Source of the DNA: a virus
Taxonomy: Duplodnaviria > Heunggongvirae > Uroviricota > Caudoviricetes
Length of the DNA stretch: 64,000 bases
Reading direction: 5' to 3' (one strand)
Virus record (IMG/VR): IMGVR_UViG_2778261375_000003
The notes below the pieces were generated by a model, which made no database searches, had not been told where the DNA came from, and saw only the letters and a list, made by a program, of their open reading frames with translations. The translations under genes were made by a program, and so were the position numbers. Below, piece after piece: positions 1 through 54,563 of this stretch. The number at the start of each line of letters is the position of its first letter. The first letter of the stretch is position 1.

Positions 1-342
1 ATGATGAAAAAAAGTATTCTGGCGTTTCTGTTACTCACCAGTTCTGCAGCGGCGCTGGCTGCACCGCAGGTGATTACCGTCAGCCGTTTTGAAGTGGGTA
101 AAGACAAATGGGCGTTTAATCGCGAAGAGGTGATGCTGACTTGCCGACCGGGTAATGCTTTGTATGTCATCAACCCAAGTACCCTCGTGCAGTATCCTTT
201 AAACGATATCGCACAAAAGGAAGTTGCCAGTGGGAAGACTAAAGCCCAACCCATTTCGGTGATTCAGATTGATGATCCTAACAATCCCGGCGAAAAAATG
301 AGTCTGGCACCGTTTATAGAACGAGCTGAAAAACTCTGTTAA
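1..342 (+). CDS. yebY: Periplasmic DUF2511-type protein, YebY-like (host gene)
   Basis: 113-aa ORF from base 1 with signal peptide [20 protein letters not shown]; matches my recollection of E. coli YebY; followed by a hairpin terminator. Confidence 0.6.
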
Positions 343-371
343 TTACCTAAACTAGCGTTTTGATTTCCAAT

Positions 372-413
372 AAAAAAACCGCCTCAGTTCTTTCACCAGA
401 ACGGGCGGTTTTT
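372..413. terminator. Bidirectional rho-independent terminator
   Basis: A-run, imperfect GC stem (ccgcc ... ggcgg), then T-run; reads as hairpin plus U-tract on both strands. Confidence 0.6.
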
Positions 414-500
414 AACATTTAAGCTGATGACCACCGCGCTTTTTATTGACCATTTTGCACGCAAACTGGAAAACCTGGCGTCGTCATCTATTCTTAAAGG

Positions 501-603
501 GCAAGGCAACTAAGCCTGCATTAATGCCAACTTTTAGCGCACGGCTCTCTCCCAAGAGCCATTTCCCTGGACCGAATACAGGAATCGTATTCGGTCTTTT
601 TTT
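501..603 (+). ncRNA. sdsR: SdsR/RyeB-like small RNA
   Basis: gcaaggcaacuaagccugcauuaaugcc... ending in hairpin 571-595 plus T-run 597-603 matches my memory of SdsR; possible -35 TTGACC at 446-451; known to lie next to yebY. Confidence 0.5.
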
Positions 604-734
604 AATTGTATTTAAAATCAATCAGTTGCAAGCGTCTCCCCGAAATTCCCCGAAATTTACTCGAATTTCTGTATTCCGGTCTTTTTTGGTTATATCACAA
701 CCAATATACATTTAACAATCCATTTACGTTAAAA

Positions 735-1811
735 TCAGAGCAGTAAGTACGTTTTTTCTCGCTCATCAAGATACATTTTTGTTGTCTTCTCCGATGTGTG
801 ACCAAGTAGGCGCTGGGCAAATTCTTCTCCACATGTTTCTTTGTACAATCGTCCAGCCAGACTTCTGATCTCGTGAAAAGTTGGTGGGTTTTCACTGAAC
901 TGGATACCTGTTAATTTTCTGGCTGCGACAAATTTTTTTGTCAGGCCATCCGGGTGAATGCTGCCGTCAGGGCTGTTTTTTCTAATCCCGGCACTGATTA
1001 GATAATCTCCCCGGCTTACCAGGCGGCATCGTTCAACTACTGTACCAAGCCGTAGACCAGCGACAGGAAGGCTGAGTGACAGGGGGATAGCAATCATCAT
1101 TCCTGTCTTAATTTGCCTGATGTGGAGACGATCATCATAAATATCACTGAACCGCATATTCGTTATGTCTTCGCGACGTTGTCCTGTTACAAGGGCTAAA
1201 TCCATAGCTAATGGGAACCATGCCGGAAGTTGATCTGCTGCCTCCCTGATGCAGTTGTATGTCTTTAGTTTCAGTCGTTCTCTTGTAACTACTATTTTCG
1301 GTGCTCTTGTTGGTGTTACTGGATTTTGAGATATACGTCCTTCAACAATGGCCTCGCGGAACATATCAGATAACACAGAACGCATTGATCCTGCCATCGT
1401 GTTTTTCCCTCCTTCAATCCACAAATCAAGAAACTCGGCAATATGGCGAGTGGTTATTTCTGTCAGTAAAACCCCTCCTAATTTTTCTTTTATTGTCTCC
1501 AGTTGATTTACCCGAATTTTATAAGTATTTCTGGACACTTTTCTCCTTATAAGAATCGTTTTGTAACGTTCAATCCAGTCTGCCATAGTAAATGAGTCGA
1601 ACCCTTTTAGTTTTTCAATTAAGGCAGCAGGAGAGTAGTTTTTGTATATATAATGATTTGCTTCAATTGCCTGCGCTACTGCATCTCTTCTTGAAATTTT
1701 ACCTAGTGTAAATTCTTCTTTCGTCAGAGGGTTGCGCCAGTAATATGCTTTGTCCCTCCTTCGATATGTTAAGTTTTTAGGCAAATTGGGATCGTATTTT
1801 TTCCGCTGCAT
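735..1811 (-). CDS. int: Tyrosine integrase, lambda Int family
   Basis: 358 aa; C-terminal catalytic region (...[11 protein letters not shown]...[17 protein letters not shown]) closely parallels lambda Int; overlaps xis as in lambda. Confidence 0.9.
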
Positions 1812-2064
1812 GTTTTAACTTCTCCAGTAACGGACTGTCTCTCCCTTGTCGCCCATTAGGCTGATGGTGTGTTATATCGGTATCAACCTTATTTGGGTTG
1901 ATATAGAAAGCTTCCGGAACCACCCTGTAACTCCTCCCGTGTAGTTCAGGTGCAGGATAAATGTTTCCATTCCTTGCCCATCGTCTCAGCGTTGATATTG
2001 ATGGTGGGTTATCCGGATATCTGAGTTTTCCCCACGTTTTGAGTGTCACAAGATTCATTGCCAT
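1777..2064 (-). CDS. xis: Excisionase (Xis-like)
   Basis: Small ORF directly upstream of and overlapping int; winged-helix-like TLRRWARNGNIYPAP resembles lambda Xis. Confidence 0.7.
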   Translation of the reverse strand: MAMNLVTLKTWGKLRYPDNPPSISTLRRWARNGNIYPAPELHGRSYRVVPEAFYINPNKVDTDITHHQPNGRQGRDSPLLEKLKHAAEKIRSQFA

Positions 2065-2164
2065 ACCTCTTACGATATGACCGCCAGTAAATATACAGAA
2101 TACTGGCGGGTGTGGTTGATTTTTAATAATCAGCTATGAAGTTATAATTTGTATATAATGCAAC

Positions 2165-2353
2165 TCACGAGGACAGAAGTTTCTCGCAATTAAAATTTAT
2201 CAGCTTTACTTTCTGCTCTCTGGACACGCCTGCTTCTTTTTTCCCTGAGAGCATTTTTTCGCATTCTGATTTCGTTAATTTAGATTTTGAATATCTTGTC
2301 CAGTTAGTAGGAGTGCCACCTTCTTTTTCAATAGTGGCAGTTATTTTATACAT
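2165..2353 (-). CDS. Hypothetical small protein (YdaC position in Rac)
   Basis: ORF between xis and lar; start chosen at internal Met to limit overlap with lar; start uncertain. Confidence 0.4.
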   Translation of the reverse strand: MYKITATIEKEGGTPTNWTRYSKSKLTKSECEKMLSGKKEAGVSREQKVKLINFNCEKLLSS

Positions 2354-2549
2354 GAACACCTCCATTATTATTTCCAGTAGTTCGTTTATTCCATCTTTCG
2401 AGTGCTTCTTTTTCACTTCCACCATAGCCAGTTCGGGATTCGCATTCGTTGCATTTTGCCCGGTAATACCCTGAAATTGCTTTCACCGTAACAGATGGAC
2501 AACCACAAAACGGACATGGTTTAACATCGTCATATCTCATAATTTTTGT
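2346..2549 (-). CDS. lar: Restriction alleviation protein, Lar/RalR family
   Basis: MTKIMRYDDVKPCPFCGC...CNECESRTGYGGSEKEALERWNKR zinc-ribbon signature of the Lar family; sits upstream of recT as in Rac. Confidence 0.8.
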   Translation of the reverse strand, partial: TKIMRYDDVKPCPFCGCPSVTVKAISGYYRAKCNECESRTGYGGSEKEALERWNKRTTGNNNGGVHV

Positions 2550-2596
2550 CATAAAAACTGTCTCACGTTGGCGGTGCATTACACCGCCAGGCTGAA

Positions 2597-3406
2597 TTAT
2601 TCTTCTGAATTATCGATTACACTGTATTCCCCGGTTAATACAGAGGAGTCTGCCGGATCGATTGTCAGTGGTTCCTTTTCATCCATTGATACTGCACGCT
2701 GGATTTCAATTGAGACAGGCAGGTATTTAAACAGGCGACGAATAGCCGTTTTTTTTGCCATTTCTTCCCAGTGAGTTACCCATGGCCCGTTATTACCAGC
2801 CTTACTCTGGCTGCGCACCAGTTCAATCTGTTTGCGCGTCATAACTTCAAACTGAGTCCCTCCGTCTTTCAGTCTTGCGACAGCATAGACGTGGGTCACT
2901 GGTGCATCTTCGTTTTCTCCCGGGCGGTGTATTAACTTTTCATCAAGGCCAAATTCAAAACTAAACTCGTCACCTTCACGGACAACACGGGCTGACAGGC
3001 TGGCGATTTGACCAGAACGGCGAGCCAGATCAATCATGCCGCGATAACCAATGATTAGCTGAACGTTCTTTTTACCGCTCTTTTCGTTTTTATTACCAAA
3101 AGGCAGTAAATATGCGTGGCCGAGGGCGCTACCTGGCTCAAGGCCGAGCTGTGAACACTGAACGATCGCACTGACAAAACTCATGGTGTCACAGTTTCCT
3201 AGCGCCGGAACCTTACGAATTTCTGTGGTGGCGATACGTATCATTCGTTCAGCCGTCATATGGCGTGGGAGAGCTGCTGCCAGTTGCTCTTTCATTGATG
3301 GCTGATTAATAAAGCTGATCACGTCGTTATTTTTTACTGCTGCTGGTGCACGGTTTCCCTGAGTTTTTTGCAGATCGGCTTTTGCGATTGGTGGTTGCTT
3401 AGTCAT
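2597..3406 (-). CDS. recT: RecT single-strand annealing recombinase
   Basis: 269 aa from [24 protein letters not shown]...; essentially the Rac RecT sequence as I recall it. Confidence 0.95.
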
Positions 3407-6053
3407 TTGCATATTCCTTAGCCCAGCGGGGCAGTGATAACGTCTTAATAGCTGGCCATTCATCGGTATTGAGGCAGTCAGCCAGGGTTCGCAGATTGCG
3501 GTGATATTCCAGCTGACCTGCCAGTTTTGCTTCTTCGCCCATCATGAAAATTTCAACCGGATAACGTCCGCATTCAATAGTTGTGCTGGCAACCAGAAAA
3601 ACGAAAGTTGGCTGCACTCCAAACTGTGCTTCATAACCGTCACTGTAGAATGCATCCTGAACGTGATAGCGGTAGTCGTAATAAGCGGTTTTGAATCGTT
3701 GAATATCCGCCGTAGTTTTCACGTCCATGATCCAGTGAAATTCAGGGATAATTTTGTCCGGACGGCACCGACACAAAATTCCTGTTTCAGGATCTTCCCA
3801 GTAAATTGATGATTCAGCGTGTCCGGCGCTTTCAACAAGCCATTGCCCCAGCGGCAAAGCCATAACGCTTTGATACATGAGTTCAATTTTCCGGCCTTCT
3901 TCCGCAGTGATAACCGTTTTTCCTGTGCTTGCGCATTCCATCAGAAACGCTTTCTCTTCTTCTTTTCCGGCGTTTGTACGGCGGTTAAATTCAGGTGCTA
4001 CGATAAAGCGGTTACTGAATTCTTCCGGTTCAAGTACCCGGCAGTGGAAAGCGGTTCCTAAATCGAGCGTTTTTGTCTTTGTGGTGTCCACGGGGGCATT
4101 TTTACGCCACAAATACAGTGCCGGAGTATCAGCAATGTCGTCGAGCTGAGACTTACTGACACCGGGACCCGCGTGGTAACTCTCATTCGAAATTCCGTAA
4201 TAAATACCTGGCTCTATGTCTTCTACGATTACGGGATCTGCGACTTCGCCAGTTTCATCACTGCAATCGCGATGCGGATCGCTGCCAGCATTCTCATTGT
4301 GCGGATGTTCAGCGCCTTCCATTTCCTCCGGATCATTTTCCTTAGCTTCAACCTGATTCTCTTCACCGAATGTTTCCTGGTATGTTGCGTCGCCCATCAC
4401 CGCACCACAGTCAGGGCAGTTATCCCCGCCAGTCTGACCGCAGGCATTGCAGACTATTTCCGGTTCCTGTTGCACTACTGGCTCAGGTTGTTTCACATCC
4501 GGGCTGGTTTTTTCCGTTTCTGGCGTGTTTTGTTCCGTTTCTGGCTGGTTCTGGTACACAGAATCGCGAGTCTGGATCCCCTTAACCCATTTCGGATCGT
4601 TCGGGTCGCTAATTCCGTCAACAAATTCACCACGTGATGCAGCAAGCAATTTATCGGCATCGACAGGATTTTTTGATGGAATGTTTTTCCGGGCTTCATG
4701 GAGTTCTGCCCGCAGTTCCTGATATTTCGCATCAACAGAATTTACCTGTGACTGAGCATCCAGCGGCTGCGTGTCCTGATGATGTTCAGTTGCGTCCGGT
4801 TCCATTGTTTCAGCCTCTCCCTGTTCATCTGCCGTTGTTCCAGTTGGTTGTGGTTTTTCTTCATCATCCTGTTTTCCTTCTTCTGTTACACGCTGCGGCA
4901 TCGGGGCAGAGGAGCGACCGCAGGCAATATCCACGATTTCCGGATCAGGGTTGGCATGATCGGTTTCAGTCAGTACTTTGTTCAGATATTCAGTGACGTG
5001 CGCGGGGATGACCTCGATCCCAATTGGTGCTTTTTTCACGGACGCAACCACGATGGCGCGTGAATAATCCAGCCCGCCAGGCATGGTGATGAATTTGTCG
5101 CGGAAAACAGAAAAGGGCGGTTTATTTTCAGCGATAATTTCCTCGACACGTTTAGCGTGTGCCGGATGAAGGTTATAAATGTCCACGTCCATTGAACGAG
5201 CCAGTACGCCAGTGGCTACGTCGCGCGCCAGTGACGTCAGATCGTGAACGAAACCTTCGCCGCGATCGGTGAGGTTCCCGCCGCCAGCATTAGCGCCGGA
5301 AGCCGTGCGCGTGATGCGTGAAACACGATTTCCTTTCATCCACTCTTTTGTCAGCAGACCGCGATCGGTGTAGTCTGCGTCCAGGTATGCTTCGAAAAAA
5401 GCAGTCATCAGCCCCAGGCTTGAATTGCCTGGATTAGGGAAAACTCTGTCAGTATCACGCACCAGTTTGTGGAGATCGCGAATTTCCAGCGGGTCGAGCA
5501 GGCTGGTTTTGTGGGAAACAGCCAGGGCAGTAACAGCTGGTAGTTCTTCAGCTCGTGCAATGTGTAATGCCTGGAGTTTGTCGCGTGAAACGTGCGTTAC
5601 CGGTTTTTCGCTGCCGTGTTGAGCAAGCCAGCGAATGGGCAGCTCCTGACCGGAAATCGGGAGTAGCATATTCTCCTCAATCTCCGTCATGTCTTCGCCA
5701 TTAACATTGGTATTGTCAGTGCTGGCTGGTTTGTCCTGCGCAGAGGATGAGGGCGCGATAAATACCATTGTGATGCCATCTTCCCCGCCTTTTTCGTAAC
5801 GGTTGCAGAATTCCGTATCAAATACGCCCTCTGGTGGAAGGTCATCAACAACGGGCAAATTGACGCGAACAGGTTTTTTAAAGTCATCTTCATCGTAGCC
5901 AGCATCGTCAATCGCAACAGCACCACGGGATATGGCAATGGATAATTTTTTCGCTTCAGCCCAGTAGAAACCGCCTTTAATACCGAGACGTTTTCTTACT
6001 TTGTCATTTTTTGCTTCGTAATACAGTGGGTAAACTTGTTTATCGGTGCTCAT
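3399..6053 (-). CDS. recE: RecE exonuclease VIII
   Basis: 884-aa ORF overlapping recT start; acidic low-complexity middle and C-terminal nuclease domain (...[22 protein letters not shown]...) as in Rac RecE. Confidence 0.9.
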
Positions 6054-46592: not shown

Positions 46593-46948
46593 AGCACCAC
46601 GTCCTGTGTGATAGTTATATCCCTGATACGAATGGATATTTTCAACTTATCAAAAGCATCTCCCTCGGCTACTGACAAGCCAGAAATCGGTATGTCAGGT
46701 AAATCTACCGTCAGTTTTTGCAACAGCATTGCCTCAACCGCAATTTGAACATGCGACAAGTTGGTCGGTTCGTGTTTAAACTGCGGTAAAACATTGCCCC
46801 ATGACGGATCCCCGTATACCTCACCCTGATAAGTGTTTAGCCACTCATATAAACGAGCGCCCCAGGCCTCCTCCTGGGACTCATACGTTTTTACGCCGGA
46901 TAACTCCAGCGTCAGCAAAGGATCAATTTCGTTATTGTTGGCCATCAA
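46589..46948 (-). CDS. Baseplate wedge protein (gpW/gp25-like)
   Basis: 119 aa, coupled between tape-measure-like gene and J-like gene. Confidence 0.5.
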   Translation of the reverse strand: MMANNNEIDPLLTLELSGVKTYESQEEAWGARLYEWLNTYQGEVYGDPSWGNVLPQFKHEPTNLSHVQIAVEAMLLQKLTVDLPDIPISGLSVAEGDAFDKLKISIRIRDITITQDVVL

Positions 46949-49900
46949 TCAACTCTCGCGTAGTCATTCATCAACGGATCATCAATTGACAGTGGTACCG
47001 TGCGCATAACGCCCGGCTGAGGCGTGCTGACCTTTACGACAGTTCCCTGGCCTTTCGCCGAGTCTTTGGTGTGCTCTTCAATCCTGGCAAGCAATGAGGC
47101 CATCTGCGCAAACAGCCGCTTCGTTTCACCATCAAGTGAAACGGTATTATCAGCCAACTGCATTGTCGGCTTGGCACCGGAGCCGCCAAGGTCACTAATA
47201 ACCTGTCCGTCTATCTGCATACGACCGGTTGGTTGCTGCAAATCGTTGGCGGCAGTCGTCACCTTGGACGTGGAGGCTGGTTCAGGCGCATTATTTTTCC
47301 GCATCCCCGGCGAGTTGCGGAGTTTATCGAATAGTCCATCAATCTCCATTTGTGCGCCGAGTTGGTCAAAGTAACTTGAGTTGTTGGCCACCGGACGCGC
47401 CTCTTCAACTGGCATCGGAGTATCAACATACACATTGCCAGCTGCTGTTGCGGTCCCCTTCCCTCGTGCACGTTCTTCGAGCGTTCCCTGAACGACTTCC
47501 CGACGCATACCCCGGCCATTCATGAATTTGTTGACCAGATCGTTAACGCCAACAGCATTGCCGATTTTGTCTACCAGACCGCCTTTCTCAAACGGGCTAT
47601 CACCAGGGGTAAATGCCAGGCCAGTAGACTGATCGATAACAGCGTTATCAGGCAGTGGTCCCCTCACTCCATATTGCGCCCCACCCTGTGCTCCTGCTCC
47701 AGGTGTATAGATTTCACCACCTAAATAGCGAGCACGATGAGTATTGACCTTGATCGCGTACTCACGGTTTTCTTTGGATAAGTCACCTGTGCCTTTTTTC
47801 CACTTATTGATAGTGCCAAACCCAGCGTTATATGCAGTGATGGCCTCGTTTAAGTCTCCATTGGCTTGCTTCAGATACTTGCTCATGAGAAGAGCCGCAG
47901 CTTCTGCCGATTTCACAGGATCAAACGATTCACCTTCAGCTAAGCCAGTCTCTTCACGAGCAATCCCCGTGAACTGAAACATTCCCAGAGCACCGGTTTG
48001 GGATTTTGCATACGGATTACCACCAGATTCAGTTGCAGCAATCGCGTAAAGAGTGCCTTCTGGAAGACCGTATTTATTCTCTAGTTCGGCAAAATACGGA
48101 GCCAACTTATCGAGATTTGCCTTACCTTCAGCGCCAAGACTTCCGACTTTTACATCTAAGTTGCCATTGTTGTAAGTATCCGCAGCTTTCTGAATGTCAT
48201 TCCTGGTGCCAGTAGTATTAAGCGACGATGATGATGAGCTATTTTGACCAATAGCATTATCAATTTTCTGCAACGCGCTATTGCCCGTTTCTACGGCATT
48301 TGCATTGATAATCTGATTGGCAGTTTCTTTAACTGTTTTATTGCTATCTTTCGCCGTATCTAGGGATGCATTTACAACACGAGTGACAATATTAGCCTTT
48401 TTAGGGGTATATTCAGTCTTAGGAGCATTGTCCTCCTGACTTTCTTTAGCTGGTGTTTTTAATTCAGGTGTAACCTCTTTCGCATCCGCTTTGTTGACTA
48501 GCTTTGATGCAACCCAGGCCACAGGGGTGCTCTGAACAGCGGCATCTGCAACCTCACCTGAAAGCTCTTTTGCGGCACTCCATAGATTACTGCCAGCTTC
48601 TTTAATGTATTTCCCTGGGTTCTTAATGAAATCAATTGCACTATCAATTGCATCACTGAAAACCTGTTTCAGGTTATCGACAGTAAAGAAGTTTTTGATG
48701 GCGTCTAATTTTTCGTTCAGGTTCTTTGTTGTGTCACTGAACCATGCTGAAATAGCATCACCAATCTTTGCAGTATAATCACTAAATGTCGTGGATATAG
48801 TATCACCAAGGTTAGAAATATATGTTTCTAAATTGGTAATCCCACTATCAATGGCCTGGGCAATACTTTCCGTCGAAAATGATTGCAACATATTGCCGAT
48901 ATCCTCAAATCCAAGTGATTTGAGAACGCCGCCAATGGCACTGCTAATACCAGATACCAGTCCTCCCATATCGAGAACGTTAGCCAGTGTATAAGCCGCT
49001 TTTTGCTGAAAAGATGGATCTTCCCCATCCTTAAGCCCAAAGGTCCGACGTTGTGCTTCTGTATCATTCCAACCGGTTACCGCATCATAGATACCTCCAG
49101 CCACCGTGCCGACTAGCGGAATTGCGCGTAAAGCCCCCTTTGCAAGAGCCTTAACACCTAGTTTCCCCAATCCCTTAGTTGCAAGTTTTCCGGCACCGCG
49201 AGTAGCCAATTCGCCAGCTTCTTTGGCAGCAGCTTTTTTCCCACCAAAGCCCAATAAGCTTGCAACTTTTTTTATACCTAAAGCGCCTAGTGCCATCGAG
49301 CCAACTTTCTTTAGTACCCCACGGCCAAAAATAAGGGAAGCAATACCACCGGCCCCCTTCCCTAACAGGCTAAATAGTTTGGACAGCAAGCCGCCCTTCT
49401 TTTTCCCGGTGTTTTTGGCTATCTGATCAAGGGCGCTGAGAATCTTGTCATTGCCCTCTTTAATTTCGCTGGTCTGCTCCTGAAGTTCCTGAACCGTCCG
49501 TTTTTGGGTGTTAACCTGAACGACATCGGCACTATTTTGCGATTTACGCCTAAAAAAACCTTTTCTACGGCTGTTATCGTCATTGCCACGAATCACATCG
49601 GCAATAGACTTTCTGGCACCATTAAGCGATCCACCAACTTCTTTTGATATCCCGCCAAGCTCCTTCCCTGCTGCCCACAATGGACCAGCAACGGCATAAC
49701 CTAACGCATCGACGGCACGAGTCTCTGAAGGGTTACCTATGCCTTCAGCTACTTTTGACAGTTTTTTTAATAAACCTGATTCAGCATTTAGACGCTCATC
49801 ATCCTCTTTGCGCCTGGCCTTTTCAGCACGTTCAGCACGGGCATCTTCCGCTGCGGCCTTACTCCCTGACTTTCCAATAAAACGACCACGCGCATCGCGT

Positions 49901-50640
49901 TGGTTTTGGCTTTTTTGCGCACCGCCTTTTTGATCGAACATTTTGCGAGCGTGTTCGGCTGCTTCGGTCCGTTGTGCCTTTATATCCTCTGGTATAGCCT
50001 TCCTGCGTCGTTTTTTACCCTTTGGTGTAGTTGATTTGGCCTGCTGTTCCTGTTGAGCAATGCCCTCCTGAACTACACGAGAAACGTCCCCTAAATTAAG
50101 CCGTTTCATTGCATCAACAATAGGGTCTACTGATGGCGCATTGGCCACAAAGTCTGGCCGGGAATTTTCGATTGTTCGATTTAATGCCGACACACTGCGA
50201 GATACTGGGTCAACCGTTGCAACGCGTTCCCCTTTCAAATCACGATCGAGTTTGACCGTTTCTAACCGCTGTGCTTTAACATCCTCTGTTATTGCCTCTC
50301 TTCGTCTATTTGGGGGATTGTGCGCTGTTGGTGCAGCCTGCTGTTCACGGTTAGTGACTTTGTCCTCCCGTATACGAGAAACGTCCCCTAAATTAAGCCG
50401 TTTCATTGCGTCAACAATAGAGTCCACTGATGGCGCATTGGTCACAAAGTCAGGACGTGAATTTTCGATTGTGCGATTTAATGCCGACACACTGCGAGAG
50501 ACAGGATCAACAGTTGCAACTCGTTCCCCTTTCAAATCTTCAACAGCTTCCCGAATACCTGCAAGCTCTTCCAGCTCTTTCGCGCTGGCGGTTTCAACTG
50601 TCCTTATAACATCGTCAATATTGGCGTTTTTTCTTTCCAT
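46945..50640 (-). CDS. Tape-measure-like protein with lytic transglycosylase (SLT) domain
   Basis: 1231 aa; SLT-like block ...AIAATESGGNPYAKSQTGALGMFQF...AYNAG...; Gly/Ala-rich helical stretches; two copies of an N-terminal repeat of about 55 aa. Confidence 0.6.
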   Translation of the reverse strand: MERKNANIDDVIRTVETASAKELEELAGIREAVEDLKGERVATVDPVSRSVSALNRTIENSRPDFVTNAPSVDSIVDAMKRLNLGDVSRIREDKVTNREQQAAPTAHNPPNRRREAITEDVKAQRLETVKLDRDLKGERVATVDPVSRSVSALNRTIENSRPDFVANAPSVDPIVDAMKRLNLGDVSRVVQEGIAQQEQQAKSTTPKGKKRRRKAIPEDIKAQRTEAAEHARKMFDQKGGAQKSQNQRDARGRFIGKSGSKAAAEDARAERAEKARRKEDDERLNAESGLLKKLSKVAEGIGNPSETRAVDALGYAVAGPLWAAGKELGGISKEVGGSLNGARKSIADVIRGNDDNSRRKGFFRRKSQNSADVVQVNTQKRTVQELQEQTSEIKEGNDKILSALDQIAKNTGKKKGGLLSKLFSLLGKGAGGIASLIFGRGVLKKVGSMALGALGIKKVASLLGFGGKKAAAKEAGELATRGAGKLATKGLGKLGVKALAKGALRAIPLVGTVAGGIYDAVTGWNDTEAQRRTFGLKDGEDPSFQQKAAYTLANVLDMGGLVSGISSAIGGVLKSLGFEDIGNMLQSFSTESIAQAIDSGITNLETYISNLGDTISTTFSDYTAKIGDAISAWFSDTTKNLNEKLDAIKNFFTVDNLKQVFSDAIDSAIDFIKNPGKYIKEAGSNLWSAAKELSGEVADAAVQSTPVAWVASKLVNKADAKEVTPELKTPAKESQEDNAPKTEYTPKKANIVTRVVNASLDTAKDSNKTVKETANQIINANAVETGNSALQKIDNAIGQNSSSSSSLNTTGTRNDIQKAADTYNNGNLDVKVGSLGAEGKANLDKLAPYFAELENKYGLPEGTLYAIAATESGGNPYAKSQTGALGMFQFTGIAREETGLAEGESFDPVKSAEAAALLMSKYLKQANGDLNEAITAYNAGFGTINKWKKGTGDLSKENREYAIKVNTHRARYLGGEIYTPGAGAQGGAQYGVRGPLPDNAVIDQSTGLAFTPGDSPFEKGGLVDKIGNAVGVNDLVNKFMNGRGMRREVVQGTLEERARGKGTATAAGNVYVDTPMPVEEARPVANNSSYFDQLGAQMEIDGLFDKLRNSPGMRKNNAPEPASTSKVTTAANDLQQPTGRMQIDGQVISDLGGSGAKPTMQLADNTVSLDGETKRLFAQMASLLARIEEHTKDSAKGQGTVVKVSTPQPGVMRTVPLSIDDPLMNDYARVD

Positions 50641-52239: not shown

Positions 52240-52830
<591 letters not shown>

Positions 52831-52886
52831 TTAACAGATTCTACGAGTTGTCATTTGTGACAGTATGCTCGCAATCGTAGTGATTA

Positions 52887-53426
52887 CTACCACCAACTGC
52901 TAGCTTTCTTCTCTCTAGCTTTTCCTTCGCTTTGCAGTAAATCTTTACTTCCTGTAGAAATATTTCTATTTGCATCAGCCTCAGACTGAATTACATCTGT
53001 CTTAGCTGCTCTCTCCTTCAACTCCTGCTCTATAAAATCGTTTTCTCGCTGGACACGAGCCGCTTTTGCTTGCAGTTCGAGCTTCATGCTTTCGAGTTGC
53101 AGCTTGCGAAGCTCATCCTCATAAGCTTGATCTCGCTTCTTGTCATTTGCTAGCTCGGCTTCTCGTTTCGCTCTACGTTCATTTTCTGCAGCAACACGCT
53201 GTTTTTCGCGTGCAGCAGCGGCAGATGCTGCTTTTTCTCTTCTAATACGTTCAGCTTGTGCTTGTTGGCGAATAAGTTCTTTTCTGGCATCCTCAGCTTG
53301 CTGCTCTTTAGCTCGCCCTTCATTTTCCGCTTGAGCAATAGCAGCAATTTGACTTTGCAACGAGTTAGCCAAGGCAGTGCCTACACTAAACGTAGAAAAG
53401 ATTAGAAATAAAATAATTTTATTCAT
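52887..53426 (-). CDS. Secreted coiled-coil protein (Lys/Glu/Ala/Arg-rich)
   Basis: Signal peptide MNKIILFLIFSTFSVGTALA then long charged helical region; AT-rich codon usage. Confidence 0.55.
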   Translation of the reverse strand: MNKIILFLIFSTFSVGTALANSLQSQIAAIAQAENEGRAKEQQAEDARKELIRQQAQAERIRREKAASAAAAREKQRVAAENERRAKREAELANDKKRDQAYEDELRKLQLESMKLELQAKAARVQRENDFIEQELKERAAKTDVIQSEADANRNISTGSKDLLQSEGKAREKKASSWW

Positions 53427-53429
53427 AAA

Positions 53430-53951
53430 TTATTTCTTTTCTGGACAAGTAGCATTTGGCTGAATTCGAGTTTCATTATCTTTAGTTGAAATAAGCACAG
53501 CAAGCCCCGTTGTAAACTGGCATGCTTTACCAACTTGAGTTGAAGTGAACACCTTAGTTCCTTCTTTATAAGTCAGTGAAACACCTTCAACAATTGTTTT
53601 ATCACTAACCAAAGAACCAGCCGCTGCACCAAGAGCCGCACCACCAGTACCGCCAGCTACAGCACCCAGTGTCGATGTGCCTTTAACATTATAACCGGCA
53701 ACGCCCCCAGCAACAGCTCCCAGTACCGCACCAAATGTCTGTGCCGCTTCTTTATTAGCTTTATTATCAACTTTCACTTTAGCTGGAAGCACAGAGATAA
53801 TATTGACTGTCTTTGTTTCCTGCTTCGAATTCAATTGAGCGGTATCATAAACATCGGCAGCATAATCAGCACCGCTAGATTGACACCCAGAAAGAAGAAT
53901 TGCAGATACAACAAGAGCGCATAAAGTATACTTTTTAGACATAAGAATCAT
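53430..53951 (-). CDS. Lipoprotein with glycine-zipper domain (SlyB-like)
   Basis: Lipobox LLSGC; GAVLGAVAGGVAGYNV...GAVAGGTGGAALGAAAGS; start may be 53951 or 53942. Confidence 0.6.
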   Translation of the reverse strand: MILMSKKYTLCALVVSAILLSGCQSSGADYAADVYDTAQLNSKQETKTVNIISVLPAKVKVDNKANKEAAQTFGAVLGAVAGGVAGYNVKGTSTLGAVAGGTGGAALGAAAGSLVSDKTIVEGVSLTYKEGTKVFTSTQVGKACQFTTGLAVLISTKDNETRIQPNATCPEKK

Positions 53952-54563
53952 CCCAGAAAAACAAAAACCGGCGAGAAGTTACCACGAGAACGGAAAGTAA
54001 ACAAGAATACTCCCATTGACTTATATCAATTAATCAACTTTTTATAAGCTATCCCTAACTTATTGTGTATAGCTGAAAAGTCAGAGACAAGTTCACCATC
54101 TGCATTATTTCTTAAGTTAATAGTTTATTGCTAACTTAATTTATGTATCGACTATTGATATCCATCTTAAAGTTACAATATCCCTCTGCATTATTTTTCA
54201 TCACAAATAATATATCTATTGCACTACACTCACCTGCTCTAATAAATTTGTATTTTTAAGTCACAAATGCTATCTTTTCGCATCATATTGACCTTTTAAT
54301 CGTTCAGGCTTATAGTTCCGCCGTCGTAGCAAATTCTGCGACCGGGTTTAGCAGCCTGAATGATTGTGCGGACAGCCGCAGATATCCGATATTGCGGTAT
54401 TTTTGTGTCCGTAAAACCGTGTTACGCCCAAATTATGGTGGGGCGTGATGGGGAGGCTTCGGCCTGCTGGTTTCACAATCGCCAGTCTGCTAACCCCGTC
54501 ACGTCCTGCCACCTGTTTAGCAGCGGGTAGCAGGTTGTTAAACCTGATTGTGAGGCCGTAACT

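Follow-up and report, generated by a model that had tools for sequence, protein, structure and literature searches.

The upf50.5-upf50.0 genes of a P1-family phage-plasmid, a YfgH-YfgI-like envelope gene pair in the position of the P1 sim genes

The window analyzed here is a stretch of 64,000 nucleotides of virus DNA (IMG/VR record IMGVR_UViG_2778261375_000003; Caudoviricetes), which sequence comparison identifies as a P1-family phage-plasmid. Two adjacent open reading frames (ORFs) on its minus strand, at 53430-53951 (173 aa) and 52887-53426 (179 aa), are almost certainly, judging from identity and homology, the genes upf50.5 and upf50.0 of the P1/P7 family, i.e., a diverged mobile copy of the Escherichia coli gene pair yfgH-yfgI. 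The pair takes the place that the sim superimmunity genes have in P1, and it is read here, on balance, as an accessory envelope module with a YfgH-like role in stabilizing or remodeling the outer membrane. The two ORFs lie exactly where they had been put in an earlier note on this DNA, which was made from the sequence alone and described an AT-rich operon for a SlyB-like lipoprotein and a secreted coiled-coil protein at the head of the tail module.

Phage-plasmids of the P1 family occur commonly in E. coli and Salmonella and disseminate resistance genes, among them mcr-1 and those for SHV-2 and CTX-M-55 (extended-spectrum beta-lactamases). Their accessory slots decide what a lysogen gains, and about a third of the sequenced P1-like plasmids carry the pair in place of the exclusion genes of P1. 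Neither gene is new, as both are annotated in public records: the P7 GenBank record describes upf50.5 as 'outer membrane lipoprotein of unknown function; similar to putative outer membrane lipoprotein of Escherichia coli ...' and upf50.0 as 'membrane protein of unknown function', the latter with the same 20-residue signal peptide as found here. As far as could be found, what is apparently unpublished is the constancy with which yfgH and yfgI are paired and the frequency with which temperate elements have captured them; a literature search found no paper that names upf50.0, upf50.5, or DUF5384, the family of the second protein. The host homologue YfgH was described as an outer-membrane stabilizer only recently, and two leads for work on YfgH follow from the present analysis, namely, the conservation of the two genes as a single module and the repeated capture of this module by temperate elements. 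In practical terms, the finding concerns an annotated gene pair rather than a new system and is of modest interest.

Identity of the two proteins

The 2.1 kb around the pair were 99.5% identical to Escherichia phage phi456 and 99.3% identical to phage P7 at the nucleotide level, and 98-99% identical to RCS47, JL22, SJ46, and other Punavirus records. From P1, the flanks alone align with this region (35% coverage).

As listed, the ORF of the lipoprotein gene upf50.5 starts from the ATG at 53951. Translation probably begins at the second ATG instead, at 53942, since homologues have lengths of 170-172 aa and their alignment starts at the second methionine; this gives a gene at 53430-53942 on the minus strand with a product of 170 aa. 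The N-terminus of the product, MILMSKKYTLCALVVSAILLSGC, contains the lipobox L-S-G-C at residues 20-23 of the 173-aa ORF, with Gln and no Asp at position +2 (found by eye and by regular expression), and the lipobox cysteine is invariant across 40 homologues. The protein is 100% identical to Upf50.5 of P7 and to its counterparts in 10 other P1-like phage records, and it is 69% identical over its full length to K-12 YfgH (BLASTP, E=5e-73). A profile derived from 40 YfgH-like sequences retrieved SlyB (PDB 7ojf_A) with E=9.4e-10 over positions 9-162, and the same structure was the best PDB match of the AlphaFold2 (AF2) model in a Foldseek search (E=2.7e-6; template modeling (TM) scores 0.54/0.63; about 25% identity). 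From N- to C-terminus, the model consists of a signal helix, a beta hairpin, the helices 61-85 and 91-111 that make up the glycine zipper, and C-terminal strands. The Pfam glycine zipper match stayed below its threshold (18.2 vs 24.2 bits), the Pfam scan at E<=0.01 returned TraT, Rick_17kDa_Anti, and DUF6861 alone and thus no link to Bor, Cor, or Llp, and direct phmmer searches of the PDB with Upf50.5 or Upf50.0 gave no useful match. By its sequence, Upf50.5 belongs to the YfgH/SlyB-like lipoproteins, and the SlyB-like glycine-zipper lipoprotein of the earlier note was recognized correctly.

Other labels are in circulation for this gene. PHROG 1277 and several RefSeq phage records (NC_050152, NC_042128, and NC_031129) mislabel it 'DNA methyltransferase', and the phi456 record (OR339795) calls it 'minor tail protein', with a 'tail tip protein' label also placed over the region. 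All three labels were rejected as propagating annotation errors that have no support in the sequence.

The partner gene upf50.0 (52887-53426, minus strand) begins 3 nt after the stop codon of upf50.5 (TAA-TTT-ATG), a spacing that makes the two genes one translationally close-packed unit. Its product, which is predicted to be exported and is highly charged, starts with MNKIILFLIFSTFSVGTALA|NS, a typical Sec signal peptide with the end ALA|NS; of the 159 residues of the mature part, 41% are charged and 29% are Ala or Gln, and there is no Pro and no Cys. The match to Pfam DUF5384 (PF17358) covers profile positions 4-145 of 145 with 147.8 bits (cut-off 25; E=3e-43), and the protein aligns over its full length with K-12 YfgI at 47% aa identity (BLASTP, E=9e-46), which places it by sequence in DUF5384/YfgI. 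The AF2 model is one unbroken helix from residue 3 to residue 178, with a predicted local distance difference test (pLDDT) score of 87; together with the signal peptide, this agrees with the exported, helical protein that had been expected from the sequence. If fully extended, the 159 helical residues would, by simple arithmetic, span about 23 nm. A heptad scan found a good pattern in residues ~84-125 only, and the N-terminal half rather resembles a single charged helix. This half, which is rich in Glu, Arg, and Lys in Upf50.0, is variable in the family alignment, and the C-terminal half is conserved, including TDVIQSEADANRN. A possible mimicry of the Sit tape-measure/injection protein by Upf50.0 was considered and rejected (BLASTP, E>=0.9).

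Conservation of the module in bacterial chromosomes

In E. coli K-12, yfgH-yfgI (b2505-b2506) lies between guaA and yfgG. A blastn search of 5426 complete E. coli genomes gave a match of ~69% identity in 5420 of them; the chromosomal matches listed lie over yfgI-yfgH or over yfgH alone, barring one short match to an unnamed glycine-zipper gene. In the same search, a version of at least 99% identity was present in 165 records and accounted for nearly all of the 192 plasmid-borne places. The earlier note had considered that the two genes might turn out to be a conserved host core gene pair. This holds for yfgH-yfgI in E. coli, although the copy in the window is a separate, phage-borne paralogue (69% and 47% identity for the lipoprotein and the partner, respectively).

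One genome per species was scanned with an alignment of the lipoprotein, which resulted in 80 loci, mostly from Enterobacterales, Pasteurellaceae, Pseudomonas, and Aeromonadales/Vibrionales, with a few others; the DUF5384 partner was detected with a hidden Markov model of the DUF5384 alignment. The partner was found at 78 of the 80 species loci, i.e., the co-occurrence of the pair is borne out by homology search, and in 77 it lies directly downstream on the same strand, with a stop-to-stop distance between the two genes of 394-615 nt. The lipoprotein and DUF5384 genes are thus one conserved module, and the charged partner, which had been taken for something unusual, is a canonical DUF5384/YfgI protein. 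The gene order guaA-yfgI-yfgH-yfgG-pdeF was seen, whole or in part, in Escherichia, Shigella, Citrobacter, Pseudocitrobacter, and three further Enterobacteriaceae genomes.

For the host proteins, several functional data are available. YfgH fractionates with the outer membrane, the loss of yfgH leads to sensitivity to sodium dodecyl sulfate/ethylenediaminetetraacetic acid (SDS/EDTA) and to raised permeability, and YfgH overexpression rescues knockdowns of outer-membrane biogenesis genes, while the SlyB-like ring oligomers proposed for YfgH are an AlphaFold3 prediction only (preprint 10.64898/2025.12.22.696046). YfgI is known from one nalidixic-acid sensitivity phenotype (PMC3536626), and the S. 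Typhi orthologues, srgIL, are regulated by SdiA (PMC11619404).

Location in the slot of the P1 sim genes

Homology to P1 extends up to position 52858 (96.0% identity) and starts again from 54235 (96.7%), as determined by blastn. In between lies an exchangeable cassette of 1376 bp (1.4 kb; 52859-54234) that lacks P1 homology and stands in for simC-simB-simA of P1 and their predicted promoters. The left edge of the cassette is marked by the late promoter LPsit (52838-52857, minus strand; -10 sequence TAGAAT), the position of which was transferred from the annotations of P7 (99.3%) and P1 (96%), and the right edge by the C1 operator Op(c4) (54233-54249, plus strand; TGCTCTAATAAATTT), taken from the P7 annotation. 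By annotation, LPsit drives pmgC/tubA-tub-pmgB-sit and is located between upf50.0 and pmgC, downstream of the pair. The pair is therefore outside the late tail operon and in the superimmunity-gene slot of P1, and not at the head of a tail module, as had been supposed at first. In P1-like elements, simABC is one of eight hypervariable, low-GC regions (PMC9603915), and the sim genes are non-essential for plating of P1 (PMC10695390).

Past Op(c4) follow divergent c4 promoters and then the c4-icd-ant (immI) operon (icd-ant1/2-kilA), with the c4 antisense RNA at 54431-54516 (Rfam C4, 69.6 bits; c4-a1b1, 55.5 bits). The divergent promoter region that had been noticed beside the pair thus exists and holds Op(c4) and the c4 promoters. 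The AT-richness reported for the locus applies to the genes to a modest degree, with a GC content of 42.7% for the pair vs 48.3% for the whole window, and to the upstream intergenic stretch, which measures ~350 bp (53952-54300; 30.7% GC) and not 600 bp as given earlier. From the arrangement of the genes, a promoter of the pair's own would have to fall in 53952-54234. Within the AT-rich 5' region of the pair (53943-54234, minus strand; ~31% GC), a candidate sigma-70 promoter was found at 54218-54190 (TAGATA-17-AATAAT). A block ~110-150 nt 5' of the pair's start is partly conserved with a second allele described below (84% identity), and an alignment of the pair's upstream region with that of host yfgH gave no detectable similarity.

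Alleles, other occupants of the slot, and selection

The P7-type allele of the lipoprotein has an aa identity of 100% in 11 phage records and of >=99% in 167 plasmids. Other P1-like plasmids, e.g., pTetA_020022, have a second allele (84% and 80% aa identity) in the same slot. Between these two P1-slot alleles, the ratio of nonsynonymous to synonymous divergence (dN/dS) is 0.06 for the lipoprotein and 0.05 for the partner, at dS>1. Both genes are under strong purifying selection, which shows that upf50.5 and upf50.0 are not chance ORFs. As dS exceeds 1 and yet the flanks are 96-99% identical, the cassettes appear to have been swapped by recombination rather than to have diverged in place.

Outside the P1 slot, alleles of 71-75% identity are found at the edges of chromosomal prophages beside tail-fibre/tail-fibre-assembly genes, in at least three integration sites and in both E. 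coli and Salmonella. Two further copies are on contigs: one, from Salmonella (102 kb), is next to a Rep3 replication gene, and the other is from Enterobacter (115 kb), on a contig with a gene for a Tad2-like protein. All mobile copies examined are followed by the DUF5384 gene, except for locus L096, where no gene was called over the stretch. Phage TL-2011b was considered as a second phage family with the pair and rejected, since positions 1-3534 of its locus are K-12 chromosome (pdeF-yfgG-yfgH-yfgI; 99.2% identity), i.e., a host flank inside a prophage record (JQ011317, 41251-44784). The dozens of IMG/VR prophage contigs (L031-L092) that match at 68-69% at contig ends look like the same host-flank artefact. 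Host DNA at the ends of the TL-2011b and IMG/VR records points to a ~40-kb prophage family that integrates beside yfgI, on the guaA side, and for which the predicted boundaries include host genes.

In PLSDB, PmgC is encoded at >=95% identity by 506 plasmids. A yfgH-like lipoprotein is present in ~188 plasmids (167 at >=99%, 1 at 95-99%, and 20 at 80-90% identity, with the P1-like slot confirmed for one plasmid of this last group), SimC in 140 plasmids at >=95% identity, and the full-length 215-aa protein of a third type of cassette, that of phage vB_EcoM-Ro157c2YLVW, in 84. The yfgHI-like pair is therewith the commonest occupant of the slot (~188 of ~506 P1-like plasmids, or about a third).

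The 215-aa protein of the Ro157c2YLVW-type cassette (L004:2194-2841, minus strand), the third common one, has a signal peptide and a Sit-like segment, NSPGMRHQNVQGTLEERARGPGT, which is 49% identical over 47 aa to the C-terminal part of Sit (BLASTP, E=6e-9 to 2e-7); the protein also matches the Sit PHROG 2533 (E=1e-7). Judging from this similarity, it might act as a Sit decoy in the periplasm and so bring about exclusion by mimicry. P1 SimA (52 aa; L002:3943-4101, minus strand) shares 92.7% identity, over its residues 10-50, with residues 1-41 of the 215-aa protein, and ~180 of the 267 plasmid records that match the latter do so at <80% coverage, with the examples listed spanning residues 1-48 only. 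On account of this likeness and these partial matches, simA looks like a truncated remnant of an earlier cassette exchange and not like a gene of its own. In the 84%-allele cassette of pTetA_020022, the pair is followed by an extra gene (L003:3880-5139, plus strand) for a 419-aa protein with an N-terminal membrane segment, proline-rich repeats, and a DUF559 (Vsr-like endonuclease) domain, which, by its domain content, could be a defense gene in the slot.

Comparison with known systems

The pair resembles YfgH-YfgI in gene order, spacing, and protein lengths (170-172 aa and 179 aa), and also in the lipobox, the glycine zipper, the two invariant cysteines of the C-terminal domain, and the conserved C-terminal half of the DUF5384 partner. 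It differs from the host pair in its location in the sim slot of a phage-plasmid, in its AT-rich upstream region, and in its strong synonymous divergence. It is the host protein YfgH that has experimental support as an outer-membrane stabilizer (preprint 10.64898/2025.12.22.696046). SlyB, which is PhoPQ-regulated (PDB 7OJF/7OJG), has the order of elements predicted for Upf50.5, with the lipid anchor, the beta hairpin, the glycine-zipper helical hairpin, and the C-terminal beta domain, although the two are only ~25% identical. An adjacent DUF5384 gene is not known for slyB. The two host lipoproteins also differ in their suppressors, namely, clsA for the yfgH deletion vs the Mla pathway for the slyB deletion (preprint 10.64898/2025.12.22.696046).

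With SimA, SimB, and SimC of P1, the pair has in common the slot between LPsit and Op(c4), the orientation, the signal peptides on all products, and the status of a non-essential accessory. There is no sequence similarity between them, however, and the Sim proteins are not lipoproteins. In terms of sequence, the pair is a positional analogue and not a homologue of Sim. TraT of F-like plasmids (surface exclusion and serum resistance; PDB 9FS5, 9FSM, and 9E2V) is, as predicted for Upf50.5, an outer-membrane lipoprotein of a mobile element with a Gly/Ala-rich helical membrane segment. Upf50.5 gives a weak match to Pfam TraT at residues 59-145 (23.1 bits, E=7e-5; gathering score 31), and many of its homologues carry a precomputed PF05818 match. 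Membership of the TraT family was rejected, as the family profile misses TraT in the PDB at E<=10, and so was a TraT fold, for which Foldseek comparisons with TraT structures gave E values of 0.23-0.65 and TM scores of at most 0.26. Lambda Bor, phi80/N15 Cor, and T5 Llp are comparable as small, envelope-targeted, lysogen-protecting products of temperate phages in accessory positions; this is a functional analogy only, and the pair differs from them in having two components and a core chromosomal counterpart. A protective role of the Cor/Llp/Bor kind, as brought forward in the earlier note, is plausible, and the sim position supports it.

Proposed role and alternative explanations

The explanation preferred here, to which somewhat more than even credence is given, is that the pair is an accessory envelope module and that, in the manner of YfgH, it stabilizes or remodels the outer membrane. 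Its biochemical mode is likely to be that of YfgH/SlyB by analogy. Given this homology, Upf50.5 would be lipidated and sorted to the outer membrane, where its glycine-zipper helical hairpin would insert and oligomeric rings would stabilize outer-membrane proteins and lipid patches. Upf50.0 would work together with Upf50.5 in the periplasm and might, to speculate further, dock via its conserved C-terminal half. From their position, the genes would be transcribed from their own promoter in the AT-rich region; since the pair is outside the late operon and not obviously under the C1 operator, it is probably expressed in the lysogen, like other lysogenic-conversion genes ('morons'). The prophage would in this way supply an extra module that braces the outer membrane, and the lysogen, along with its plasmid prophage, would be shielded from envelope insults and possibly from the entry of other phages. 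Curing of phi456 lowers acid survival, oxidative (H2O2) survival, and colonization (PMC10967188); this is an effect of the whole prophage and is therefore not assignable to the pair.

Several points speak against such a stabilizing role. The confidence of the AF2 model of Upf50.5 is low (pLDDT 57 overall; 70-80 in the beta domain), so that the SlyB fold match rests mainly on the sequence profile. The sole consensus promoter match in the upstream region, that at 54218-54190, scores 9/12, which is no better than chance in comparison with shuffled sequences. The acid and H2O2 phenotypes of phi456 are not classic outer-membrane ones, and the authors attribute them to changes in rpoS, katE, and oxyR (PMC10967188). 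With 69% and 47% identity to the host pair, the function may have shifted, and the E. coli host already carries yfgHI, so that the benefit of a second copy is not obvious.

A less probable reading is that the pair is a functional replacement of simABC, i.e., a Sim-like superinfection exclusion system that blocks phage DNA entry after adsorption, with stabilization being incidental. Work cited in PMC8546580 attributes superinfection exclusion by Sim to blocked DNA injection. The pair occupies the exact simABC slot, and all cassettes seen in this slot encode proteins with signal peptides (SimA/SimB/SimC, two Ro157c2YLVW proteins, and the pair); moreover, the Sit-like segment in another occupant suggests interference with entry as the dedicated purpose of the slot. 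The neighborhood of tail-fibre genes, where the pair is located in other prophages, is typical for Cor-type exclusion genes. On the other hand, the pair has no similarity to SimA, SimB, SimC, or Sit (BLASTP among the cassette proteins, E<=1e-3) and its PHROGs differ from those of Sim, neither protein matches any PADLOC-DB v2 defense model at E<=0.01, a scan of the pair against NCBIfam gave nothing meaningful, and a dN/dS of ~0.05 gives no indication of diversifying selection. The same module is core-chromosomal in many bacteria without P1-like phages, which points to a general envelope role. P1 and P7 are heteroimmune and plate on each other's lysogens, which makes a strong exclusion at single copy less likely.

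More doubtful is a broader proposal, in which the LPsit-Op(c4) slot would be a swappable exclusion-cassette locus and the yfgHI-like pair a two-component envelope exclusion device that replaces Sim. The three main occupants, namely, sim, the Sit-mimic cassette, and the yfgHI-like pair, would then represent distinct ways of blocking DNA entry, and the device would consist, in modeled terms, of a SlyB-like outer-membrane ring and a helical rod that, at ~23 nm if fully extended, would be long enough to cross much of the periplasm. If this were true, the chromosomal yfgHI of E. coli would also have an unrecognized role against the entry of phages or colicins. Stabilization of the outer membrane and Sim-like exclusion are not mutually exclusive.

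An origin of the pair as a neutral hitchhiker, i.e., host DNA that recombined into a permissive AT-rich region without a phage function, is improbable. In its favor, the slot is a low-GC recombination hot spot (PMC9603915), and the family is chromosomal in origin. Such an origin is difficult to reconcile with the intact frames, with an aa sequence that is kept at 100% in the phage records and at >=99% in the plasmid records mentioned above, and with a dN/dS of ~0.05 between alleles whose synonymous sites are saturated; in addition, at least three other kinds of mobile element have acquired the pair, each independently, and the pair is the most frequent occupant of the slot. That the pair serves as a virion component or another late function in the tail-morphogenesis operon, or as a lysis modulator, is very improbable, even though pmgC-tub-pmgB-sit follows directly after the pair, on the same strand, and the phi456 record carries tail-protein labels on these ORFs. 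LPsit is downstream of the pair, both proteins have Sec signals, and the chromosomal orthologues have no phage markers in the flanks probed. Furthermore, P1 and at least 224 P1-like plasmids with other cassettes (~140 sim and ~84 other) lack the pair, and for this reason it cannot be required for the tail.

Further features of the locus

Between the stop codon of upf50.0 and the start of pmgC, a stable hairpin is predicted at 52813-52847 on the minus strand. The 91-nt stretch that was folded as RNA (52800-52890, minus strand) has a free energy of -30.3 kcal/mol (z=-6.1), and 0 of 200 shuffles were equally stable. The hairpin lies within the block conserved with P1, overlaps the -10 sequence of LPsit, and base-pairs with the greater part of the ribosome-binding site of pmgC (GAGG). 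Read-through transcripts from the pair would hold both hairpin arms, by which the ribosome-binding site of pmgC would be masked, and transcripts started at LPsit would hold the 3' arm alone, which would leave the site free. The hairpin may thus insulate late-gene translation from read-through from the pair, or terminate this read-through.

On the other side of the cassette, a sub-threshold Rfam match to the Salmonella small RNA IsrK (54323-54404, plus strand; 43.7 vs 50 bits) sits between the c4 a1/b1 target sites and the c4 RNA, and probably reflects the shared ancestry of immI-like regions.

Lastly, the sit gene at 46945-50640 (minus strand) is 100% identical to that of phi456, and P1/P7-type records cover ~91% of it. 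Sit is 1231 aa long here, 1130 aa in P7, and 1140 aa in P1. Tandem Repeats Finder reported nothing for the 5' part of sit, despite an internal duplication in the protein: translation and a double blastn alignment place a second copy of the N-terminal block LKGERVATVDPVSRSVSALNRTIENSRPDFV.NAPSVD.IVDAMKRLNLGDVSR in the extra length. If Sit is a tail ruler, a longer Sit might result in a longer tail.

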